This document shows, one piece after another, positions 1 to 64,000 of a stretch of DNA of 64,000 nucleotides. The position numbers and the translations under genes are program-made. Every line of letters starts with the position of its first letter. Position 1 is the stretch's first letter. The stretch is taken from assembly GCA_018056245.1 (NCBI GenBank), contig JAGPFZ010000001.1, positions 79,241 through 143,240 on the forward strand, in the 5' to 3' direction. This DNA comes from Bacteroidales bacterium (lineage in GTDB: Bacteria > Bacteroidota > Bacteroidia > Bacteroidales > VadinHA17). Below the pieces are notes generated by a model. It searched no databases. It worked only from the letters and a program-made list of their open reading frames with translations, and was not told the DNA's origin.

Positions 1-367
1 CTACTGCCTGGAGGTTGCCTTTAAATAAACCGTTCCCAAAAGCAATTATTAAAAGACCTACAATAGTAATACCCAGAGTCATATCAGGTATTGCCATTAA
101 AAGATATCCGGCAAACATTATTATTAAACCTGATAGAATTACTGTTTTATATCTGTGTGTTGCATCAGCCAGTATGCCTCCTACCAGGGCAAGTGCATAG
201 ATACTGAAATAAAACCAGCTATAAATATCACCAGCCTTTTCTGCTGATAATCCGAATTTAGCCTGAAGAAAGAGTACGAGAATGGCCATCATTGTGTAAA
301 ACCCGAACCTTTCACCCATGTTGGTAAAAAATGCGATAATCAGACCTTTAGGATGATTCTTAAACAT
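1..367 (-). CDS. POT/PTR2-family di-/tripeptide:proton symporter, N-terminal part (gene runs off the window start)
   Basis: Not in the ORF track because there is no stop in the window. The reverse-strand ATG at 367-365 translates to MFKNHPKGLIIAFFTNMGERFGFYTMMAILVLFLQAKFGLS... This shows the conserved N-terminal PTR2 signature and TM pattern of DtpT-type permeases. Confidence 0.8.
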   Translation of the reverse strand, partial: MFKNHPKGLIIAFFTNMGERFGFYTMMAILVLFLQAKFGLSAEKAGDIYSWFYFSIYALALVGGILADATHRYKTVILSGLIIMFAGYLLMAIPDMTLGITIVGLLIIAFGNGLFKGNLQAV

Positions 368-598
368 AATGTCTTTGTATTATTATATAGCTATAAAAGT
401 ATAATTTTAAATTTTAAATTAATTTATTCCGTAATTTTTATTAAAAAGTCAGTGATAAAATATAAGAAAAAAACAACTGTCCAAGTTATAGGTGGTTAAG
501 ACAATTTGATATAGTCTTATGCTTCAAATGAATGGTCCTGAATATAAAATCCAATTTTTATTCCTTTCCATAATCAAAAAATAACTGTATTTTTACAA

Positions 599-1012
599 AT
601 GGTTAAACTTAAAATTAGCAGTTATGAAAAAACAGTTTCATTTGCAGCATTGTTTATTTTGATTGCATTTTCACTTACGGCTCAGAACCAAAAGCTAAAG
701 TATAATCTGACGGGGATATGGAAATTCGATGCTCCTGATGCTCCTTATGGATATACGTCAGGTTCTATGGAGTTCAGATTGAGCGAAGGCAAATATACAG
801 GCTCCGCTTCTTTCACCGGAAGTGATTACAAAATACCGATTCAGATTTTAAAAGCAGCTAATGATTCAATTTCCGGTGGTATGTATGTTGACGGTACCGA
901 CGTCCGGCTTAATCTGAAGATAGAAAACGAGACTAAAATGACCGGAAAAGCATGGACTCCTGACGGTGTAATTGTTGTAACCGCAATTAAAGAAAAACCT
1001 AAACAACCTTAA
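599..1012 (+). CDS. hypothetical secreted/anchored protein
   Basis: 137-aa ORF with an N-terminal hydrophobic segment (VSFAALFILIAFSLTAQ). No catalytic motif recognised. Confidence 0.45.
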   Translation: MVKLKISSYEKTVSFAALFILIAFSLTAQNQKLKYNLTGIWKFDAPDAPYGYTSGSMEFRLSEGKYTGSASFTGSDYKIPIQILKAANDSISGGMYVDGTDVRLNLKIENETKMTGKAWTPDGVIVVTAIKEKPKQP

Positions 1013-1026
1013 GGGATAACTCCCTG

Positions 1027-3003
1027 ATGAAACATCTGTTTTTCACATTACTTCTTTTATCTTTCTCTCTTGTTGATGCCATCACACAGATAGTCGTTAC
1101 TGTGCCTTTGAGCGCAAGGCTTACAGGATATAAAATAGATGCGGTCCTCGATCCGGACGAGAAAATTGTGAAAGGTAAAATGGAAGCATTCTGGGTGAAT
1201 AACTCATCCGATATTGTGCCCGATGTCAGACTTCACATGTACCTCAATGCTTTCAGCAGTAATAAAACCACTTTCTTTAAAGAGTCTGGAGGCACACCGG
1301 GTTCTGACAGGAAAGATATAGGCTGGATAAGAATTTGTTCGTTAAAAGAGTCCAATGGTACTAACCTTGTGCCTTTGATGAAGTTTATAAGCCCTGACGA
1401 CGGCAACCCTGACGACAGAACGGTTCTTCAGGTAGTTTTGCCCAAGCCTGCTCTCCCGGGCGATACGGTATTCATTGTCTCGGAGTTCGAATCCAAACTG
1501 CCTTCACGCATGATACGCACAGGCTATGCCGACGATTTTTTCTTTGTTGGCCAGTGGTTCCCGAAATTCGGAGTTTACGAGTCTGCCGGCATGAGAAACA
1601 GACTTACCGGCGGATGGAACTGCCACCAGTTCCATGCAAATTCGGAGTTCTATGCAAACCATAGCGTTTATGACGTAAACATAACCGTTCCGACTGGTTT
1701 TGTCGTGGGCTCAGGGGGGATGACCTTGAGCGAGAAAGATAACGGCGACAGTACCAAAACTGTAACAATCCGTGCCGAAGATATCGTTGACTTTGCATGG
1801 ACCGCCTGGCCGGGATATAATATATATACCGACCGCTGGAGAAATGTTAATATTATCCTGCTGTGTCCGCCGGAAAAGAAGGGCCTTGTTCAGAGACATC
1901 TCGTCGCAGTAAAGAATGCGCTCGAATACCTCGATGCTAACGTCGGACCTTACCCCTGGCCTCATCTCACATTCGTCGATCCGCCGGTCAAGGGCATGGG
2001 AGCAGGAGGCATGGAATATACCACGTTATTCACAACCGCTTCAGTTCCGGGCCTGCCTGAATATATGCTCTCACCTGAGTCGGTTACGGTTCATGAATTC
2101 GGACATGCTTATTTCATGGGAATACTGGCAAGCAATGAATTTGAAGAACCCTGGCTTGACGAGGGGGTAAATTCATACTGGGAACAAAGGATTATGGACC
2201 ATTACTACGGCAATGGAGCCGGAGTGATAAACCATCCTCTGCTGAAAGTTTCTGACCGCTCGACCGCACGCTCGGATTATGTCACGTCGCCGTCGAAACA
2301 GGCAGTGACTAATGCTGAATATTCATGGAACTACCCTCATGGAACTTATACTATAATGTCATATCGGAAACCGGCCGCAGTACTTCACACTCTTACCGGA
2401 ATCATCGGAGAAGATACTATGAATGAAGTATTCAGAGAATATTACAGAAAATGGGCTTTTAAACACCCGTCAGGGAAAGATTTTATCGAAGTTTTCAATA
2501 ATACAGTTCCCCGCCTCCATGGACAAAAGTATGGAACAGATTTGAACTGGTTCTTCAACCAGACTCTTTATGGTACCGGGATCTGCGATTATAAAGTTAT
2601 TAATATAATCAACAGAAAGATAAGCAGTCTGGAAGGTGCAGCTTCTATATACGATTCAGTTGAGGTAGTTAAAAATGTCACTAAAGACGATTCATTGTAT
2701 TCTTCAGTTGTTCAGCTTCAGCGCGACGGCGAACTGATGCTGCCTGTTGAAATTCTCGTACGTTTCGATAACGGAGAAGAAGTAACAGAACAGTGGCACG
2801 GCAAAACAAGAGTTAAAGATTTAAAATATACCGGAACAAATAAAGTAGAATGGGTGAAGATAGACCCTGAATACAAGAATATGATGGATATTAATTATAT
2901 AAATAATTCAATGACTATTAATGCCGATGAAAAACCGGTAAAGATTTTGTTCAATAAGCTGGTTTCCATCATGATGCTCTTTCTCGATTTTTTATTTGTT
3001 TAA
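1027..3003 (+). CDS. M1-family zinc metallopeptidase (aminopeptidase N-like), secreted
   Basis: 658-aa ORF with a signal peptide. Carries the gluzincin motif HEFGHAYF followed by WLDEG (HEXXH plus distal Glu). Confidence 0.85.
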   Translation: MKHLFFTLLLLSFSLVDAITQIVVTVPLSARLTGYKIDAVLDPDEKIVKGKMEAFWVNNSSDIVPDVRLHMYLNAFSSNKTTFFKESGGTPGSDRKDIGWIRICSLKESNGTNLVPLMKFISPDDGNPDDRTVLQVVLPKPALPGDTVFIVSEFESKLPSRMIRTGYADDFFFVGQWFPKFGVYESAGMRNRLTGGWNCHQFHANSEFYANHSVYDVNITVPTGFVVGSGGMTLSEKDNGDSTKTVTIRAEDIVDFAWTAWPGYNIYTDRWRNVNIILLCPPEKKGLVQRHLVAVKNALEYLDANVGPYPWPHLTFVDPPVKGMGAGGMEYTTLFTTASVPGLPEYMLSPESVTVHEFGHAYFMGILASNEFEEPWLDEGVNSYWEQRIMDHYYGNGAGVINHPLLKVSDRSTARSDYVTSPSKQAVTNAEYSWNYPHGTYTIMSYRKPAAVLHTLTGIIGEDTMNEVFREYYRKWAFKHPSGKDFIEVFNNTVPRLHGQKYGTDLNWFFNQTLYGTGICDYKVINIINRKISSLEGAASIYDSVEVVKNVTKDDSLYSSVVQLQRDGELMLPVEILVRFDNGEEVTEQWHGKTRVKDLKYTGTNKVEWVKIDPEYKNMMDINYINNSMTINADEKPVKILFNKLVSIMMLFLDFLFV

Positions 3004-3880
3004 CCAAATCAAAGTGAAAATAATCAGACATATTTCTTCAGGATTTATCAGGTCGCTCCAATGCTGGAAATGGATACTCGTTATATGGATTTTTTCCCTG
3101 TTGTTGATATTACTTTTTGCCGTACCTCTTAAATCGGCAGTGAAAAGTATCATCGGTTCGAGCATGATTACAGAAAAAATCTCGGAAGGATTCCTGTCGG
3201 ATGTTATTTCCAACAGCGATTCAGGGTTCAATATTGTATTCTCATCTTTTATAACCGGTTTTTCAATTGTAATTCTTCTCAACATACTGATGAATAATTA
3301 TTTTGCAGGTGGCTTATTCGGCTCATTAAAATCTGCGTCAGGACAAGGAAAATCATCAGTTTTTTTCGAAAATGCAGGTTCAAACTTCTGGTCTTTCCTT
3401 CTGATTTACATTATGTTTTTCGTTGCAGTTTTTATTTTTGCCTCATTAATTATCGGGATACCTTCGGTAATTAACTGGAAATCAATATCAGAAAATCCTC
3501 TCGGCATTATTTATAGCTGGCCTGTGATAGTTTTTGTATTTTTAATTCCTGTCTTAACTCTCATTTTAGACTATTCACGGGCATGGCAGGTTTCATCCGA
3601 CAGTAAGAATGGATTCAAAGCAACAGGTAAAGGTGTAAAGCTTCTTTTTAAAAGATTCTTCCCTTCTTACTTTTCTATTCTTCCTGTGTTTATTATTTAT
3701 GTTCTCTACGCTTTATTTGCCGCAAAAGTTGTAATTTATTCACAACCGGTAAATGGCAGCGGTGTTTTTATGGTTTTTATTCTCGGGCAAGTACTGGCAA
3801 TGCTTAAGATTTTTATACGAAGCTGGCGATATGGTGTGGTTACAAACCTGTATGAAACATACTCCTTAAGAATTCAATAA
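2996..3880 (+). CDS. hypothetical polytopic membrane protein
   Basis: 294-aa ORF overlapping the upstream peptidase gene by 8 nt, with multiple hydrophobic helices. The start is uncertain (TTG 2996 or GTG 3014). Confidence 0.5.
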   Translation: MFNQIKVKIIRHISSGFIRSLQCWKWILVIWIFSLLLILLFAVPLKSAVKSIIGSSMITEKISEGFLSDVISNSDSGFNIVFSSFITGFSIVILLNILMNNYFAGGLFGSLKSASGQGKSSVFFENAGSNFWSFLLIYIMFFVAVFIFASLIIGIPSVINWKSISENPLGIIYSWPVIVFVFLIPVLTLILDYSRAWQVSSDSKNGFKATGKGVKLLFKRFFPSYFSILPVFIIYVLYALFAAKVVIYSQPVNGSGVFMVFILGQVLAMLKIFIRSWRYGVVTNLYETYSLRIQ

Positions 3881-3959
3881 CTTTTCATTTAATAAGGATT
3901 TATAATGATTTGTTATCTTTTGTTCAAAGAAATTTTATGTTGATTATTTATAACTTTTT

Positions 3960-6062
3960 ATGACGAACATGATTATCGTTTATAGAAAAAAAATTGGTAT
4001 TTTTTTCTTTATTTGTCTGATTCAGGCATTTACATTGCTGCTTTTTGCACAATATCCGGCAAATTATCAGTACACTCTGCTTCAAAGCGAGATTGTGGAT
4101 GAAATTATCGGAGCATCATCGGGCGAACTTGCATTAAGACATATTATTGAGCTTGCGCCATACACACAACTCAGGTATGACGAGGAGTTCTCAGGGAACT
4201 TCAGGGAAACAGATTACGTACTTAGCGTATTAAGTAAATACGGGCTGAATCATTCTCTCGACAATGTTGGTGAAATACCCACATGGAGAGGGTTACAGGG
4301 CACTTTGTGGGAAATTAGTCCGCGAAAGGAGAAGGTTGCAGATTTCAGTGAGGTTCCCGAAATGCTTGTCGAGGGGAGTCAGCCTGCAGACCTTACTGCC
4401 GAGCTTATATGGGTAGGTGACGGCTCCCCGGTTATTATAGAAGCCAACCGTGAGAAGATAAAGGGTAAAATAATTGTTACTTCAGCCCCTCCATACTCAG
4501 TGCATCTTAGAGCTTTGAATGCCGGCGCAGTCGGGACGATTTCATACTATTCTCCGCGTCCGCTTGTCGATCCAATACAGATACCCAATACAAGCATTCC
4601 TGCTAAAGGGTTTGCCTTTCTTATGCCGCCTCGCGAAGGTGAGATATTAAAGGACAGATTATTGCGCGGAGAAACAATCAGAGTGAGTGTGAAAATCGAA
4701 AGCAAAACCGAACAGGCTAAACTTCAGGTACCATGGTGCATAATACCGGGCACTGACCCTTCCGCAGGAGAGATCATTTTTACAGCCCATCTTTTTGAAG
4801 GCTATACGAAGATGGGAGCAAACGATAACATGTCGGGTTCTGCTGTATTGCTCGAAGTAGCTCATGTGCTTAATGACCTTATCGAAGCAGAGAAAATCGA
4901 TCCTCCTGTAAGAACTATAAGGTTTTTATGGGTACCCGAGTTCGACGGTACTATACCATGGGTAAATCAGAACCTTCAGAAAGTAAAAAAAGCAATTTGC
5001 GACATAAACCTCGATATGGTCGGCATTAACCTTCGGGCAAATAAGAGCTTTATGTGCCTGCATAAATCGGGCTTCTCTACAGCTCACTATGTGAATGATG
5101 TGGTGGAAAACTATTTCAGGTATGTGGGCGAAACAAATGTGGAAGGTATAACGGACCAGCTTGGCCGGCGCGGTTTTTCCAGGAGAATAGTTGCTCCCAC
5201 CGGCACCAACGACCCGTTCTATTACCGGATTTTATCATTGCACGGCTCATCAGATAATGCCGTGTTCAACGACTGGAGCATAAATATACCTGGTGTGAAA
5301 TTAATCACATGGCCCGACAATTACTATCATTCTTCGGAAGACAATCCCGATAAGTGCGATCCTACCCAACTGAGAAGAATAATATTTATTTCGGCCGCCA
5401 GTGCTTATACGATGGCATCAGCAGATGAAAAGATGGCGGTAAGAATTCTTTCTGAAATGTTTTCCAGTGCAACGGCAAGGCTGGGAATACAAATGGCAAA
5501 ATCGTCCGATATGGTGAACAAGGCTGATGCCGTTGAACTTCCGGCCGCTTACAAACGTGCCTGCTATAACCTCGAAGGAACAGCCATGGCTGAGAAATCA
5601 GCAATGGACAAAGTAATACAGTTGTCGGATAAACCTGAAGTGGTGGGTATGATAGAAGTCATAAAGAAAGAAGTGAATAATATACTTCAGATTCATCTGT
5701 CGGCATTAAAGGAACTTATGATTAATCGGACAGCTCAGATGAAAATTCCTCAGATAAACCTCTCTCCTGACAGCATCGAGAAAAAAGCAACGAAGATAAT
5801 CCCATCAGTTACTGATAAGGCTCTCAACATGGGATATGGAGGTGAATGGAATTATATTTCGGCTCTTTCTTCAGACTTTCTTTCAAAAAACTATTACGGC
5901 AATATTGTCAATACAAGTGAAGCAGCCGGTCTTGCTGACGGGAAACGAAATCTTCTCGAGATTAAAAAGATGGTTGATGCACAGTTCGAGAAAGAATCCC
6001 CTTTACAGGATATTATAAATTATTATACAGTGCTTAAAGAGGCCGGATTGATGAAATATTGA
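3960..6062 (+). CDS. M28-fold peptidase-like protein (aminopeptidase-like), secreted
   Basis: 700-aa ORF with an N-terminal signal/anchor. The metal-ligand-like region TAHLFEGYTKMGANDNMSGSAVLLE and the motif DINLDMVG are typical of M28-fold peptidases. Confidence 0.65.
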   Translation: MTNMIIVYRKKIGIFFFICLIQAFTLLLFAQYPANYQYTLLQSEIVDEIIGASSGELALRHIIELAPYTQLRYDEEFSGNFRETDYVLSVLSKYGLNHSLDNVGEIPTWRGLQGTLWEISPRKEKVADFSEVPEMLVEGSQPADLTAELIWVGDGSPVIIEANREKIKGKIIVTSAPPYSVHLRALNAGAVGTISYYSPRPLVDPIQIPNTSIPAKGFAFLMPPREGEILKDRLLRGETIRVSVKIESKTEQAKLQVPWCIIPGTDPSAGEIIFTAHLFEGYTKMGANDNMSGSAVLLEVAHVLNDLIEAEKIDPPVRTIRFLWVPEFDGTIPWVNQNLQKVKKAICDINLDMVGINLRANKSFMCLHKSGFSTAHYVNDVVENYFRYVGETNVEGITDQLGRRGFSRRIVAPTGTNDPFYYRILSLHGSSDNAVFNDWSINIPGVKLITWPDNYYHSSEDNPDKCDPTQLRRIIFISAASAYTMASADEKMAVRILSEMFSSATARLGIQMAKSSDMVNKADAVELPAAYKRACYNLEGTAMAEKSAMDKVIQLSDKPEVVGMIEVIKKEVNNILQIHLSALKELMINRTAQMKIPQINLSPDSIEKKATKIIPSVTDKALNMGYGGEWNYISALSSDFLSKNYYGNIVNTSEAAGLADGKRNLLEIKKMVDAQFEKESPLQDIINYYTVLKEAGLMKY

Positions 6063-6198
6063 TTTCCGGCAAAAAGAATTATGAAAGGAGTAAGTTTAAT
6101 TTTGTGAAAAAATTAAATAGATATAAATTATTAATATAATAAAAAATTTATTATTTTACAAAATATTCTTGATTTAAAGAACAGTAAATTACTTACAT

Positions 6199-7125
6199 AT
6201 GAAAAAATTCATATTCTATTTTCTTCTGATATTAGTTCTTTCTGGCCTTAGTTCTCAGGCACAGGATAAAAATGTAAATCTTCCTGACGGGTCGAAATTC
6301 AATTTCATAATTATAAGTGATTATGGCAGGAACGGCTACTACAACCAGAAGGAAGTCGCCGGCGTAATGGGCAACATTGCAGGAGAATGTAGTGTGAGGT
6401 TTATTGTAACAGGAGGCGACAACTTTCAGACAAGTGGTGTCGAAAGCACTTCCGACCCTCTGTGGTTATCTTCTTTCGAGAATATCTATTTTCATCCTTC
6501 ATTGCATGTTGAGTGGTATCCATGCCTTGGGAACCACGATCACGATGGCAATATACAGGCACAGATTGACTACTCTAATATAAGCCGCCGCTGGAAAATG
6601 CCTGCAAGTTACTATACACTTGTAAAGACCAGAGATGATGTTAGCATAAGACTTGTGATACTTGATACTTATCCACTTGTTCAAGGTTTGGGAAGTCCTG
6701 ACAAAAAATATACCAGAGAAGATGCTTTGAAACAAATTCACTGGACAGACAGTGTGCTTACTGTGGAGAAAGAAGACTGGGTGATAGTGGTGGGGCATCA
6801 TCCCGTTTACAGTGCTCACCCAACACGGCATAATACGGAAGAACTGGTGCAATATCTGAATCCGGTTATGAAGAGACACGATGTTGATTTTTATATCGGT
6901 TCCCACGATCATATATTTCAGCATCTTAAAGACACTGCAAGTAAAATTGACTATTTTGTTAATACCGCAGGCTCACAGGTACGCAGTGCGGCAAAAAATA
7001 ACATGACTGTCTTTACCGTTTCTTCGCCAGGTTTCAGCATAGTATCGGCAACTAAAAAAGACCTTTCGATCTACTTCATTAATATTGACGGCAAAGTAAT
7101 ATACAAATACGTCAGAAATAAATAA
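6199..7125 (+). CDS. purple-acid-phosphatase-type metallophosphoesterase, secreted
   Basis: 308-aa ORF with a signal peptide. Carries the calcineurin-like motifs GDNF, GNHDHD, VVGHHP and GSHDH. Confidence 0.8.
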   Translation: MKKFIFYFLLILVLSGLSSQAQDKNVNLPDGSKFNFIIISDYGRNGYYNQKEVAGVMGNIAGECSVRFIVTGGDNFQTSGVESTSDPLWLSSFENIYFHPSLHVEWYPCLGNHDHDGNIQAQIDYSNISRRWKMPASYYTLVKTRDDVSIRLVILDTYPLVQGLGSPDKKYTREDALKQIHWTDSVLTVEKEDWVIVVGHHPVYSAHPTRHNTEELVQYLNPVMKRHDVDFYIGSHDHIFQHLKDTASKIDYFVNTAGSQVRSAAKNNMTVFTVSSPGFSIVSATKKDLSIYFINIDGKVIYKYVRNK

Positions 7126-7294
7126 TTAATACACACACATTCAGTATATTATATATTATCTGAGTTTTTGAACCCAAACACTATTCTATATCTGTAAGTA
7201 TAAATACCTAATTAAAAATAGGCATTAAGCTCCTGTAATTCGTCGGACACTTTGGATATTTTTGTATTAGTGATATACGATTTTTACAGGTCAA

Positions 7295-60631: not shown

Positions 60632-61134
60632 ATGAGAAAAAGTGTTACTCAAAAATCGAGGAGAGAATTTCTTTCAAAAGCAACAATGGCGGCAGCCGGT
60701 CTGGCGTTTAGTGGTTCTACACTTACAGCCGGCAAGTACCGCAAGGCTTCAAGGCCTCAGGAAAAAATAAGGATGGGATTTATCGGCCTGGGTAACCGTG
60801 GTTCCCAGCTCCTAAGGCTGTTTATGTCGCATACGAAAATAATATTCCCTGTTTCTGTGCCGACCTTACTGTGAACCCAATACTTGTGGAATGGAACAAA
60901 AATGTTGCCGCACGTCTTAAACCGTTCCCCGGTATAGGACTCGGACTTCTTGAAACAAACGGCCATCAGAACTATAAGAACTGGGCGATAATGAAGTCCT
61001 ATCATCCTTTCCCTGATGCCTTATGGGCAAATGCCCGAAACGGTATTTTTGAACTTGACAATGATTTTTACAGTAAAAGCGGAGGAATCTTCATACAGTC
61101 GCCACATTATATAAATATGGTAGATTTAATATAA
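60632..61134 (+). pseudogene. remnant of a Tat-exported Gfo/Idh/MocA-family oxidoreductase gene
   Basis: The first ORF has a Tat leader (SRREFLSKATMAAAGLA) and a Rossmann start (IRMGFIGLGNRG), then stops after 80 aa. A second short ORF in another frame continues for 87 aa. The total of about 165 aa is far shorter than I would expect for this family. Confidence 0.4.
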
Positions 61135-61275: not shown

Positions 61276-62343
61276 ATGAGCAAAAAGGAAAATGTTTTTA
61301 TTTCAGGTATTCATTATGAAACAGGCGAGTATATTGAAATTGAGATTTCAGACGGTTTTATAGGGGAAATCAGATGTAGCGGAAAACAGATTAATAAAGG
61401 ATGCGAAACTTATATAGCTCCGGGTCTTATTGACAGTCAGACTAATGGTTATTTAGGTATCAATTTTCAGGATGAGCTTTTTTCAGTCGAGAGGATGAGA
61501 TTTGCTGCCAAAGCAATTTGGAAAGATGGAGTTACTACGTATGTTCCAACCCTTGTTACCGAAAGTCGTGAAAATTTACTGAGGAACTTTCGGATTCTTG
61601 CTATGGCTATTGAAGATAAGCAACTGATGGGATGCATTCCAGGTTTTCACCTTGAAGGTCCTTATCTTTCATCTATTCAGGGTTTTTATGGATGTCATAA
61701 TGCAAAATATTTACGGAATCCTTCTATAGATGAATTCAATGAGCTACAGGAAGCTGCACAGGGCCACATAATAATTGTTACAATTGCTCCGGAACTTGAA
61801 GGTGCGATCGAATTCATCAAATATTGCTCTGAAAATGGTGTTGTGGTATCAATAGGTCATACAAATGCAACTACTGAACAGATTTACAGAGCGGTTGACA
61901 ATGGTGCAAGGATGTCAACCCATCTGGGGAACGGATGTGCGAACATGATTAACCGCTACCGGAATCCATTATGGCCACAGCTTGCAAATGATAGTCTCAC
62001 ACTTTCAATTATTGCCGACGGATTTCATCTTTTGCCAGAAGAAATAAAGACCTTTTATAAGGCAAAAGGAGACAATAATATAACTATTACTTCAGATGTA
62101 ACTCATCTAGCAGGAATGCCTCCGGGTAAATATTCGTATATGGGAAGTGAAGTAGTGATGAACGATGAAGGGCGTATTTTTAATCCTTCTCTTAATTGTC
62201 TTGCAGGTGCATCGAGCCCGCTTAAAAAGGGAATCGAAACTATGATGAGATTTACCGGTTGCACACTGGGTCAGGCAGCCAACCTTGCAGGCAGAAATGT
62301 TGCACGGCTTCTTGGCCTTTCCGACCGTGGTATTATAGAGTAG
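61276..62343 (+). CDS. nagA: N-acetylglucosamine-6-phosphate deacetylase-like amidohydrolase, ending at a TAG that looks premature
   Basis: 355 aa with the motifs GLIDSQTNGY, HLEGPYLS, SIGHTNAT and STHLGNG. After the TAG at 62341-62343 the same frame continues for 33 codons (GKRADIILFTLAHGKVTIKETWVAGRRVYPDRQ) to a TGA at 62443-62445. That stretch resembles the usual NagA C-terminus. Confidence 0.8.
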   Translation: MSKKENVFISGIHYETGEYIEIEISDGFIGEIRCSGKQINKGCETYIAPGLIDSQTNGYLGINFQDELFSVERMRFAAKAIWKDGVTTYVPTLVTESRENLLRNFRILAMAIEDKQLMGCIPGFHLEGPYLSSIQGFYGCHNAKYLRNPSIDEFNELQEAAQGHIIIVTIAPELEGAIEFIKYCSENGVVVSIGHTNATTEQIYRAVDNGARMSTHLGNGCANMINRYRNPLWPQLANDSLTLSIIADGFHLLPEEIKTFYKAKGDNNITITSDVTHLAGMPPGKYSYMGSEVVMNDEGRIFNPSLNCLAGASSPLKKGIETMMRFTGCTLGQAANLAGRNVARLLGLSDRGIIE

Positions 62344-62507
62344 GGCAAAAGAGCCGATATCATCCTTTTCACTCTTGCCCATGGCAAGGTAACTATAAAA
62401 GAAACATGGGTGGCAGGCAGGAGAGTATATCCTGACCGGCAATGAGATAATGTCCTTTCGACATGATGATATAGAGTCGAATTTATTTTAATCTAACCAA
62501 TGAGAAA

Positions 62508-62966
62508 AGCCTGACTCGTCGTCCGGAAAAACTAAAACCTCCGGCTGGTGCCGGAGGTGTAATTTGCCGGTGCGGAGAGAGGGGGATTATTCGCTTCGCT
62601 CATGATCCCATGAGGGAGGGTCTTGCACCGTCAAATTCCCTCGTCACGCTTTGCGTGCCTTGCGTTTTCGTTTTTCCTTACTCCTCCTTCAGGCAGAGCC
62701 TGACTCGTCGTCTGAAAAAACTAAAACCTCCGGCTGGTGCCGGAGGTGTAATTTACCGGTGCGGAGAGAGGGGGATTATTCGCTTCGCTCATGATCCCAT
62801 GAGGGAGGGCCTTGCACCGTCAAATTCCCTCGTCACGCTTTGCGTGCCTTACATTTTCGTTTTTCCTTACTCCTCCTTCAGGCAAAGCCTGACTCGTCGT
62901 CCGGAAAAACTAAAACCTCCGGCTGGTGCCGGAGGTGTAATTTGCCGGTGCGGAGAGAGGGGGATT
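62508..62966. repeat. tandem array, exact 189-bp period, 2.4 copies, reiterating the tRNA-Ser 3' end plus its trailer and terminator
   Basis: Units are 62508-62696, 62697-62885 and a partial unit 62886-62966. I counted 7 substitutions between the two full units. The first 81 bp of unit 1 are identical to the tRNA-proximal partial unit. Confidence 0.85.
62905..62935 (-). terminator. rho-independent terminator of tRNA-Ser (copies at 62716-62746 and 62527-62557)
   Basis: Minus-strand stem CCTCCGGC-ACCA-GCCGGAGG followed by TTTTAGTTTTT. Confidence 0.7.
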
Positions 62967-63039
62967 CGAACCCCCGTTCCGCCGGAAGGCGGAAAACGGT
63001 TTTCGAGACCGTCCCATTCAACCACTCTGGCATCTCTCC
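62951..63039 (-). tRNA. tRNA-Ser (anticodon CGA)
   Basis: The 89-nt cloverleaf was read by hand. Acceptor GGAGAGA/TCTCTCC with discriminator G. Anticodon stem ACGGT/ACCGT with loop CTCGAAA. Long variable arm TTCCGCC-TTCC-GGCGGAA. T-arm GGGGG-TTCGAAT-CCCCC. CCA is not encoded. Confidence 0.93.
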
Positions 63040-63322
63040 CTTCAACTGCCACAGCCCATCTATCTGGAAAAGGAAGTATTTGTTCCCATAAACATGAGAA
63101 AACAGCTTTTAACCAACATATCCGTATAAGGATATGGCTTTTTAACCATCTTCCCGATTAATATATGCTGCAATAATTCAGTATTAATTTTCTATGTAAC
63201 GGCACAAATATAGTTAAAATGAAATTTTAAATCTGCCTTTTATTGTTCGTACCTTTATTTGAAAGGTCATTCAAAACTTTTATCTTCGCTCACTTTAAAG
63301 AAAATAAATTTATTATCACACA

Positions 63323-64000
63323 GTGAAAACAAAAATTTATTTTATAGTGTTGCCATTAATAGTGTTGCCATTAATAATGGGGACATTAATAATTTCATGT
63401 AAAAATATTGAAAAACAAAAAGAAATGAGTAATCCGTTTTTCAGTGAATACCAAACACCTTTCGATCTTCCTCCATTTGAAAAGATTCAGGCAGGACATT
63501 ATATGCCGGCATTTCAAAAAGGTTTGGAAGAAGCCAGAAAAGAACTCGAAGTAATAGTTACGGATGATAATCCTCCAACATTTGATAATACTGTGGAAGC
63601 TCTCGATAAAATGGGAAAACTGCTCCAGAAAGTAAGCTATGTTTTTTTTGCTCAGGCATCGGCAAATACGAATGATTCTATACAAAAGATTGAAATTGAG
63701 ATTTCACCGGTGTTGTCTGCCTTTGAAGATGAAGTCAGGCTTAATCCTGTTTTATTCAATAGAATCAAATCAGTTTACGATAGCCGCGAAAAATTGAATC
63801 TGAATGAGGAACAAAAATTTTTACTCGAAAACCTTTATAAGAACTTTGTAAGAAATGGAGCAGGACTTAGCAAACAGGATCAGGATTCTTTGAAAATACT
63901 GAACGGAAAACTGTCAGTCCTCACAGTAAAATATAGCCAGAATGTACTTTCCGAAACAAATAACTATAAGATGATAATAACTGATTTGGCAGACCTTGCA
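63323..64000 (+). CDS. dcp: M3-family peptidyl-dipeptidase (Dcp-like), N-terminal part (gene runs off the window end)
   Basis: Not in the ORF track because there is no stop in the window. The frame is open from GTG 63323 to 64000. It has a lipoprotein-type leader (...GTLIISC), then NPFFSEYQTPFDLPPFEKIQAGHYMPAFQKGLEEARKELEVIV...PTFDNTVEALD, typical of the Dcp N-terminus. The start is uncertain (GTG 63323 or ATG 63377). Confidence 0.8.
   Translation, partial: MKTKIYFIVLPLIVLPLIMGTLIISCKNIEKQKEMSNPFFSEYQTPFDLPPFEKIQAGHYMPAFQKGLEEARKELEVIVTDDNPPTFDNTVEALDKMGKLLQKVSYVFFAQASANTNDSIQKIEIEISPVLSAFEDEVRLNPVLFNRIKSVYDSREKLNLNEEQKFLLENLYKNFVRNGAGLSKQDQDSLKILNGKLSVLTVKYSQNVLSETNNYKMIITDLADLA
63346..63375 (+). 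repeat. perfect 15-bp tandem duplication inside the Dcp signal peptide
   Basis: AGTGTTGCCATTAAT occurs twice, head to tail. It is in frame and encodes the duplicated IVLPL. Confidence 0.8.

Follow-up and report, generated by a model that had tools for sequence, protein, structure and literature searches.

A polymorphic tandem array of an uncatalogued structured module at a tRNA-Ser attachment site in Bacteroidales

Directly 3′ of the tRNA-Ser(CGA) gene of a Bacteroidales bacterium (lineage VadinHA17; GenBank assembly GCA_018056245.1) lies a short tandem array, which we describe here. It was studied in a stretch of 64,000 nucleotides (contig JAGPFZ010000001.1, positions 79,241 to 143,240), referred to as the window, whose own numbering is used throughout. 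The array and its tRNA gene are on the minus strand. We find it to be a polymorphic tandem array of an uncatalogued structured module at a tRNA-Ser attachment (att) site. Contigs and loci used for comparison carry L numbers.

The array 3′ of tRNA-Ser(CGA)

The tRNA-Ser(CGA) gene occupies positions 62950..63039 and was found with ARAGORN and the Rfam tRNA model (58.5 bits). CCA is not encoded, and CA follows the discriminator G at 62951. It is the sole tRNA gene that ARAGORN reports in the window; ARAGORN and the Rfam model both call a single tRNA, so the locus is not a tRNA pseudogene array. A tandem repeat with a period of 189, 2.4 copies, 95% matches and 0 indels was located with TRF at 62506-62966, and a repeat search of the window returned a 189-nt pair and three 83-nt copies spaced 189/189. 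Read 3′ from the tRNA gene, the layout is X1(81)-Y1(108)-X2-Y2-X3, with an 81-nt block X and a 108-nt segment Y.

By base-by-base comparison, block X1 (62886..62966) is identical to X3 (62508..62588), and X2 (62697..62777) differs from both at 3 positions, all transitions. Segments Y1 (62778..62885; allele ‘a’, TGT / GGC) and Y2 (62589..62696; allele ‘b’, CGC / GAC) differ at 4 positions. Full units 1 and 2 differ at 7 positions, every one a transition, and are ~96% identical. The 189-bp array of the original prediction, with its 81- and 108-bp blocks, seven unit differences and identical outer blocks, was reproduced to the base. Each X block opens with a 16-nt core, AATCCCCCTCTCTCCG, which the window contains 3 times, where chance would give 0.01. 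Core copy 1 (62951..62966) lies wholly within the tRNA gene, where it takes in the last part of the T loop, the 3′ strands of the T stem and acceptor stem, and the discriminator. Copy 2 (62762-62777) is entered directly from module D of unit 1 (see below), and copy 3 (62573-62588) lies within X3. No further copies of Y or of the core were found in the 64-kb window, so the array is not a dispersed repeat of the REP (repetitive extragenic palindrome) or MITE (miniature inverted-repeat transposable element) type. The unit contains no real open reading frame (ORF).

After the core, X1 comprises a trailer, a terminator hairpin, a U-run and CCGGACGACGAGTCAGGCT, and X extends 19 bases past the hairpin and U-run. 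The hairpin (hpT; 62905..62936) was identified by a terminator scan and reads ACCTCCGGC-ACCA-GCCGGAGGT then TTTAGTTTTT. Its 9-bp stem (7 G-C pairs), 4-nt loop and TTTAGTTTTT fit an intrinsic terminator, which occurs three times on the tRNA strand, with identical copies at 62716-62747 and 62527-62558. ARAGORN and the terminator scan agree with the predicted order of tRNA-Ser(CGA), trailer and strong terminator. Bacteroidetes promoters carry a -7 box, and a regular-expression scan for this motif found TAtaTTTG at 63205..63212, ~165 nt upstream of the tRNA gene and also present in the sister-species locus L002; it is the presumed tRNA promoter. The scan found no second -7 box in 62500-63300 and hence none inside the array, so distal units would be transcribed by read-through only.

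Each full unit folds (RNAfold minimum free energy [MFE]) into a part closed by a long helix, named module M, and a 3′ part, named module D. Module M of unit 1 spans 62814..62951, as defined by the MFE fold, the helix positions and the covariation counts given below. Its closing helix P1 pairs GCACCGGCAAATT (62939-62951) with AATTTGACGGTGC (62814-62826) over 13 bp and encloses hpT and the other helices: helix P2 pairs the U-run (62903-62912) with an A-run (62857-62866), and two hairpins are predicted, hpA (TCAGGC-TTT-GCCTGA; ~62878-62892) and hpB (CACGC-AAA-GCGTG; 62834-62846). Module M of unit 2 (62625..62762) has the same helices shifted by 189. Module D of unit 1 (62770..62807), delimited by alignment to the 3′ third of the tRNA, reads CTCCC-TCAT-GGGAT-C-[ATGAGCGAAGCGAATA]-ATCCCCC, and that of unit 2 lies at 62581-62618. 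X3 is a truncated third unit that has the core, the P1 5′ strand, the terminator and the U-run and lacks their pairing partners. It is followed by a unique flank, TCTCATTGGTTAG, homologous to the flank of an empty site in the sister species.

Copy number and conserved fold in relatives

The same locus with 2.4 copies and two Y units is present in L001, an independently assembled activated-sludge contig in the European Nucleotide Archive (ENA), in which the Y-unit alleles differ from those of the window in kind and order. The array is real, and L001 excludes an assembly artefact of the window. Six further contigs of the same species (L082-L087; five Joint Genome Institute [JGI] samples and one ENA sample), found via the intact NagA of the window species, have flanks 0-0.8% different from the window and a single unit, X-Y-X. 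These one-unit contigs and, in L001, the distal unit share allele ‘a’ of Y1. The single unit of the six short-read contigs, against two in the window, might point to a repeat collapsed or expanded in assembly, and 189-bp repeats are near the limit of short-read resolution. Two independent assemblies nevertheless have two units with internally distinct alleles, and arrays of like design stand in contigs of 405 kb and 1.17 Mb, so that such an artefact is extremely improbable.

A sister species is represented by a Bacteroidales metagenome-assembled genome from a sludge digester, with a NagA 91% identical to that of the window species and flanks 10-13% different. Three of its loci (L002, L089 and L098) have one Y-like unit, 87.5% identical to the window Y, and two (L090 and L092) have none: tRNA, trailer, terminator and flank follow one another directly. 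L089 (one unit) and L090 (none) encode identical NagA proteins and have flank differences of 1/900 and 3/900. Thus 0, 1 and 2 Y units coexist among strains whose flanks differ by <=1%. This bears out the earlier suggestion of tandem duplication by unequal crossover as far as the change in copy number is concerned. The junction of the sister-species empty site falls inside a 37-nt repeat after the terminator, away from the core, which matches recombination or slippage between X blocks. We infer that copy number changes by unequal homologous recombination between X repeats, the simplest mechanism. Y and its flanks have diverged to a similar degree between the two species, which speaks for vertical descent.

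At a contig end of the window species (L088), the tRNA-proximal block has the sister-type terminator loop CTCTGGCGTTAGCC and the distal unit is of the window type; this mosaic suggests between-species recombination or an old polymorphism at the array.

More distant loci (68-72% protein identity) were fetched via Dcp, the neighbor on the other side of the tRNA gene; the NagA route was uninformative, giving genomes at ~50% identity and contigs at ~70% identity without a tRNA gene beside nagA. Modules M and D were found 3′ of tRNA-Ser(CGA) in four more distant Bacteroidales lineages. In L121, the tRNA gene is followed by a 185-bp array of 2.6 copies, whose units start with AATCCCCCTCTCTCCG, have their own, different trailer and terminator, and end with GGGATCACCGAAGGT. 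L122 has one L121-like unit and then a 305-bp array of 7.9 copies, each with GGGATCACCGCAGGTAATCCCCC; this unit consists of a long helix-closed multi-hairpin and a GGGATC...AATCCCCC hairpin. L123 has a single unit and L117 two diverged units. In L099, the 3′ motif lies upstream of an aldo-keto reductase gene that is also found downstream in another lineage. The module is absent from L120, where a plain terminator is followed by a CT-rich tract. The downstream gene differs per lineage (nagA, aldo-keto reductase, nucleoside transporter, Por-tail protein or GH53 enzyme), and the gene tables list no integrase within 4-10 kb of the related chromosomal loci. Across the 124 fetched loci (~1.1 Mb) and the window, the motif GGGATC-N(5-30)-AATCCC is confined to tRNA-Ser trailers, apart from four chance-like GGGATC...AATCCC matches in coding sequence.

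Two features of these loci are noted separately. The 305-bp array of L122 lies at 686-3011 of a 1.17-Mb contig with 95% matches, and its copies past the fourth are apparently 281-bp variants. The CT-rich tract of L120 (~120 nt, ~1650-1770, minus strand) is built of CACTCTCACA-like repeats.

Folded singly, units of the window and the sister species and of L117, L121 (two), L122, L123 and the viral contig L124 (see below) all gave the same layout: P1, hpT, P2 capped by hpA, and a 3′ hairpin. P1 begins at the tRNA discriminator base (GCA...) except in L124, where its start lies right behind the encoded CCA; it closes on ...TGC, and next to this stands A(A)GG, which L124 lacks. P2 joins the terminator U-run to the downstream A-run under the hpA cap, and a small hpB is often present. 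The hairpin past P1 has the form GGGAT-C-[variable tip, often C-GAA-G]-A-ATCCC. In a helix-only alignment of 9 units from 7 lineages, 96.4% of cells are standard pairs and 29/34 pairs change on both sides, values reached by 0/500 shuffles, while slid partners pair at 31-51%; these counts overstate the statistical support, since helix strands were chosen by eye because they pair and hairpins were aligned by position only. Between the two L121 units, a P2 pair has changed from G-C to A-U, a compensatory change, and the non-Watson-Crick pairs on the tRNA-sense strand are 6 G.U and 0 A.C. That long-range P1 and P2 persist with a different sequence in each lineage is not trivial. A whole-unit alignment with MAFFT and RNAalifold was off register by one column at the P1 3′ strand and serves as a rough check only. 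The module is missing from Rfam (release 15): only tRNA and tRNA-overlapping families matched, with the E cutoff at 10 for the window and at 1 for L117 and L121-L123. The proposed Rfam scan of the units thus returned no family beyond these.

A host-encoded functional structured RNA in the tRNA-Ser(CGA) 3′ trailer, either a new noncoding RNA or a cis element, is a tentative alternative to a mobile-element origin. It would be cotranscribed with the tRNA when transcription reads through the terminator, or freed when RNase Z cuts at the discriminator base, and would act in 3′-end maturation, in termination or as a stable trailer RNA, with D as a T-arm mimic; arrays would arise since D and the tRNA share AATCCCCC. 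The layout common to all seven lineages, the pairing counts, the compensatory change in L121 and the G.U bias speak for this explanation, as does the position of the module, always behind the same tRNA while the downstream neighbor varies. The conserved, co-varying structure also lends some support to the earlier idea of terminator-bounded small RNAs with tRNA-like 3′ ends, against which stands the lack of a promoter box in the unit. The module is, however, dispensable, being missing from L090 and L092 in a carrier species and from L120. Most of the structure lies behind a canonical terminator, so that with no -7 box in the unit little may be transcribed, and where a lineage has a single unit, the part of D that matches the acceptor strand decays. 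Two findings described below are unexpected for a purely host RNA: the core is identical with a provirus repeat, and in L124 the module is linked to an integrase and to a tRNA fragment. Templated (quasi-palindrome) mutation can maintain hairpin complementarity without selection, and it offers, next to the hand-picking of strands that inflates the counts, another explanation of the pairing.

The ancestry of D was assessed by global alignment to the 3′ third of the tRNA against shuffled controls, which gave z-scores of 8.4 for L121, 8.1 for the sister species, 4.9 for the window, 4.1 for L124, 3.8 for L117, 2.3 for L122 and 1.2 for L123. In the sister species, D has the variable arm TCCGCCGGCCGGCGGA joined to TAATCCCCCTCTCTACG, and in L121 it aligns near-gaplessly to the tRNA from the variable arm through the discriminator. 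By these alignments, D derives from the variable arm and T arm of tRNA-Ser, of which it is a decayed copy, and the pseudo T-arm/acceptor recognized earlier at the end of the 108-bp segment is a decayed tRNA-Ser 3′ third. Two other origins of Y were also considered, decay of an entire tRNA and copying of the region upstream of the tRNA gene, and local alignment supports the 3′ third alone; a GACGGT match of Y to the anticodon stem was treated as chance.

Attachment-site links and neighboring genes

Viral contigs were scanned for the core followed by CA, which gave eight loci, two of them at opposite ends of a single provirus contig. The 39,765-bp provirus contig IMGVR_UViG_3300010210_000006 has the 19-nt AATCCCCCTCTCTCCGCAA at both ends. 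This terminal repeat is the core plus CA(A), its left boundary AATCCCCC is the same as that of the window repeat, and a PF00589 integrase gene starts 120 nt past the left copy. Three other viral contigs carry tRNA-Ser 3′ fragments that run from the anticodon arm and end in the core, each followed by its own hairpin/terminator; ARAGORN found no full tRNA in these three. In L130 and L132, the fragment is followed by genes with Arm-DNA-bind_5, Phage_int_SAM_5 and Phage_integrase domains. The fragments with terminators indicate that tRNA-Ser-targeting elements supply a tRNA 3′ end plus a terminator. To judge from the provirus repeat and these fragments, the bracketing core is the integrase attachment site used by tRNA-Ser-targeting elements. 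In Bacteroides and Phocaeicola, the NBU2-type integrase IntN2 uses the tRNA-Ser 3′ end (PMC8816746).

The original prediction held that an att duplication would not normally include the trailer and terminator. This premise is weak: direct repeats at tRNA-gene islands span 15-221 bp (bioRxiv 10.1101/2020.11.02.365908), a range that takes in the 81-bp repeat with its trailer and terminator although it is far above the usual 20-25 bp, and the viral fragments carry terminators. Its proposal of stacked remnants, each of which supplied a tRNA 3′ end, holds for the origin of the bracket, given the provirus repeat, the viral integrases and the decayed D; the stacking of two independent elements is disfavored by units 96% identical with the same boundaries.

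Further loci from the viral scan are recorded here. In L125 and L131, it is by way of full tRNA genes that the core is matched. Right after a tRNA-Ser end, L131 has tRNA-Pro(TGG) genes, three in tandem and ~70 nt apart (~3670-4030), and L125, a 335-kb viral contig, has a 13-tRNA cluster at 150-3900. At the end of viral contig L128 (13370-13430), a hairpin and then an inverted core end, GCGGAGAGAG, stand behind the core.

A scan of viral contigs for the D motif found L124 (IMGVR_UViG_3300025298_000065), of whose 39,996 bp a stretch of 8.4 kb was read. On one strand, it has in order a divergently transcribed 587-amino-acid (aa) ORF (5473-7236, plus strand), three or four TAGGGTAGCAA repeats, a tRNA 3′ fragment, M and D. 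The fragment is from a different tRNA (T stem GCGGG/CCCGC, CCA encoded), and a full tRNA is absent. M is complete, with the same fold and unrelated sequence, and the tail of D copies its own tRNA end (AATCCCGCCCT...), matching it at 14/18 positions versus 11/18 for the window tRNA. The 587-aa ORF had zero matches in Pfam, PHROGs, NCBIfam and PDB sequences. Its family of 12 proteins (P0244-P0255) has invariant R415, R528, H552 and Y564, and its predicted structure (pLDDT 72.9) has tyrosine recombinases as all of its top ten PDB matches, among them XerH, Tn1549 Int, lambda Int and VchIntIA (probability 0.97-1.0). The structure model and the invariant residues indicate a family of divergent tyrosine recombinases with a long N-terminal extension.

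Sequence searches returned no parent element. Exact pieces of Y had 0 matches in viral contigs and 0 in GTDB species genomes, and in metagenome contigs matched the L001 locus alone. The trailer of the window and sister-species type had 0 matches in viral contigs, and the array had zero blastn matches in phage and plasmid collections. In the comparison with relatives suggested earlier, several share the module, and no similarity to a known element was found. A 17-mer of Y matched viral contigs 14 times, all by chance, with extension stopping at 17-28 nt.

An active miniature integrative element, analogous to a MITE, would be excised as a ~189-bp circle and inserted again at the tRNA-Ser core by a tyrosine integrase that a co-resident phage or island supplies in trans, and the arrays would be repeated integrations. 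The bracketing cores share a boundary with a real provirus repeat, M-D adjoins an integrase in L124, presence and copy number are polymorphic in near-identical strains, and a shared Y allele occupies different array positions in the window and L001. We consider such an element unlikely, as the sole readable deletion junction lies in the 37-nt post-terminator repeat, as homologous recombination gives, Y has diverged in step with its flanks as in vertical descent, the D motif occurs nowhere else in the ~1.1 Mb of fetched loci or the 64-kb window, and no integrase lies near any chromosomal locus.

Integron attC arrays, including clusters of attC sites lacking integrases (CALINs), are tandem, gene-poor arrays of sites whose fold is conserved and whose sequence is not. 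An array of such single-stranded DNA recombination sites would likewise consist of structured, gene-less units, and an integron integrase is among the structural matches of the L124 recombinase. The lambda-type and Xer-type recombinases match that ORF equally well, the closing helices GCACCGGCAAATT / AATTTGACGGTGC and their variants lack RYYYAAC / GTTRRRY boxes, and the units are bracketed by a tRNA 3′ end, unlike attC sites; this explanation is most improbable.

Close to the array, the window strain has several private changes. The nagA gene (61276-62445, plus strand) has an in-frame TAG at 62341-62343 (codon 356) and reads on to the normal stop. The premature TAG reported earlier was found again and is specific to the window: the codon is CAG in L001, and NagA is intact (389 aa) in L082-L087. 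The TAG is a nonsense mutation private to this strain, or else a sequencing error; it does not signal recoding. When compared with its relatives, close and distant (blastn with L082 and L099; gene tables), the window also has a ~3.3-kb deletion at ~60761-60826, which removes most of gfo, an AP_endonuc_2 gene and most of MR_MLE and fuses a short 5′ Gfo/Idh/MocA piece to the last ~310 nt of the MR_MLE_C gene. The Gfo/Idh/MocA remnant noticed earlier is the product of this deletion. A 15-bp tandem repeat, ATAGTGTTGCCATTA (TRF; 3.2 copies, 63344-63391), lies between the dcp start and the tRNA promoter, with 2 full copies of TAGTGTTGCCATTAA in the window versus 1 each in L001, L002, L082, L086, L089 and L090. 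The genes downstream of the array are housekeeping genes whose order recurs in a relative, and none in the 8 kb downstream within the window is an integrase or mobile-element gene, as judged with no Pfam scan of every ORF; this agrees with the reported absence of an integrase.

The variable copy number and the 96% identity of the units could be accounted for by neutral local tandem duplication with neither mobile-element history nor function, in a strain whose private changes (a 15-bp duplication, a 3.3-kb deletion and a nonsense mutation) show that it accumulates structural changes. A third partial copy needs a pre-existing repeat, however, so X-Y-X cannot result from a single tandem duplication of unique sequence. 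The design recurs in other sequence in L121 (185 bp, 2.6 copies), L122 (305 bp, 7.9 copies) and L124, its boundary is the att core, and the related arrays are akin in sequence and structure. Neutral duplication by itself is accordingly quite unlikely.

Origin of the array and comparison with known systems

The reading that we favor, to which we give about an even chance, is that the array consists of extra copies of a gene-less ~189-bp att-bracketed relic, similar to a cis-mobilizable element (CIME), amplified by unequal recombination. The source of the relic is most likely the insertion site of a virus or island. An integrative element would have doubled the tRNA's 3′ part, giving attL and attR, and would later have lost all of its genes, leaving a CIME-like relic between the tRNA end and its copy. 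What is read here as the relic has been kept at the tRNA locus through speciation in a Bacteroidales clade, with its fold conserved. X+Y units, which number 0, 1 or 2 in close relatives and 2.6 or ~8 in other genera, would be gained or lost through slippage of the 81-bp X blocks or unequal homologous recombination between them. The first hairpin and U-run would terminate the tRNA transcript, and the rest of the unit would be dispensable, having been lost in some strains, yet structurally constrained.

Several observations weigh against an origin as an amplified relic. Searches of phages, plasmids, viral contigs, genomes and metagenomes returned no parent element bearing M or Y, and the proviruses that share the core lack M-D. 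The M-D of L124 may be an arm of the element or the resident trailer of a host tRNA acquired by accretion. No integrase-type excision at the core was seen, and the sister-species deletion used the post-terminator repeat. The divergence of Y between the two close species roughly equals that of the coding flanks and is not clearly faster; junk would diverge faster. A dead relic is expected to decay, yet the M-D fold is kept; a helix architecture with compensatory changes in seven lineages and a G.U bias favor selection on RNA, and the co-varying helices are left unexplained by a relic. This covariation keeps alive both a host trailer RNA and a structured module carried by integrases. M-D may, rather doubtfully, represent an undescribed family of gene-less structured modules at the tRNA-Ser att site in Bacteroidales and relatives, with arrays of at least 8 units: either a structured RNA from the tRNA trailer that elements with tyrosine integrases carry or exchange, or a miniature element that such integrases mobilize in trans.

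Among known systems, a CIME is a decayed element without integration and transfer genes that keeps attL and attR, and ICESt1-type elements form tandems by accretion (PMC5704250). As in a CIME, att copies are kept at the target gene's 3′ end, integrase genes are gone and tandem structures occur. The att bracket is seen in the threefold 16-nt tRNA end, the provirus terminal repeat and the decayed D, and the loss of integrase and transfer genes in a unit with no ORF and neighboring gene tables with none of these genes; the one link to a parent is the M-D beside a tyrosine recombinase in L124, and no parent was found. Unlike a CIME, the array unit is only ~189 bp long, has no gene remnant and has an internal fold conserved across genera, and no similarity to a known element was found. 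Its near-identical copies would come from homologous recombination and not, as in CIME accretion, from successive integrations. The tRNA-Ser att sites of NBU2 IntN2 and the provirus have the same target, the tRNA-Ser 3′ end, and a repeated block that runs from the T loop through the discriminator. Elements at such sites bring a tRNA 3′ end and a hairpin/terminator, whereas the window array has no integrase or cargo.

The 3′ETS-leuZ of Escherichia coli is an RNA from a tRNA 3′ external transcribed spacer. A trailer RNA from the array would putatively resemble it in following directly after a tRNA, ending at the operon terminator and being freed by 3′ processing. In contrast to 3′ETS-leuZ, most of the structure of the array lies beyond the terminator, and the units are in tandem and end in a pseudo-tRNA 3′ end. 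From attC and CALIN arrays, it differs in the absence of R and L boxes, in the tRNA-end bracket and in a G.U pattern that fits the tRNA-sense strand.

If the favored reading is true, tRNA att sites hold long-lived relics of <200 bp with a defined fold, which supply the tRNA terminator, vary in copy number within species and place additional or decoy att cores next to a tRNA gene that is essential and single-copy. Such relics escape annotation, having no ORF, Rfam family or nearby integrase, and they mark the spot of the downstream synteny break in every lineage examined. They could be surveyed by a motif consisting of a closing helix from the discriminator, a hairpin and U-run, an A-run partner and GGGATC-[tip]-AATCCC. 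Should the module prove instead to be a trailer RNA with a function, or a miniature element mobilized in trans, it would form a new class.

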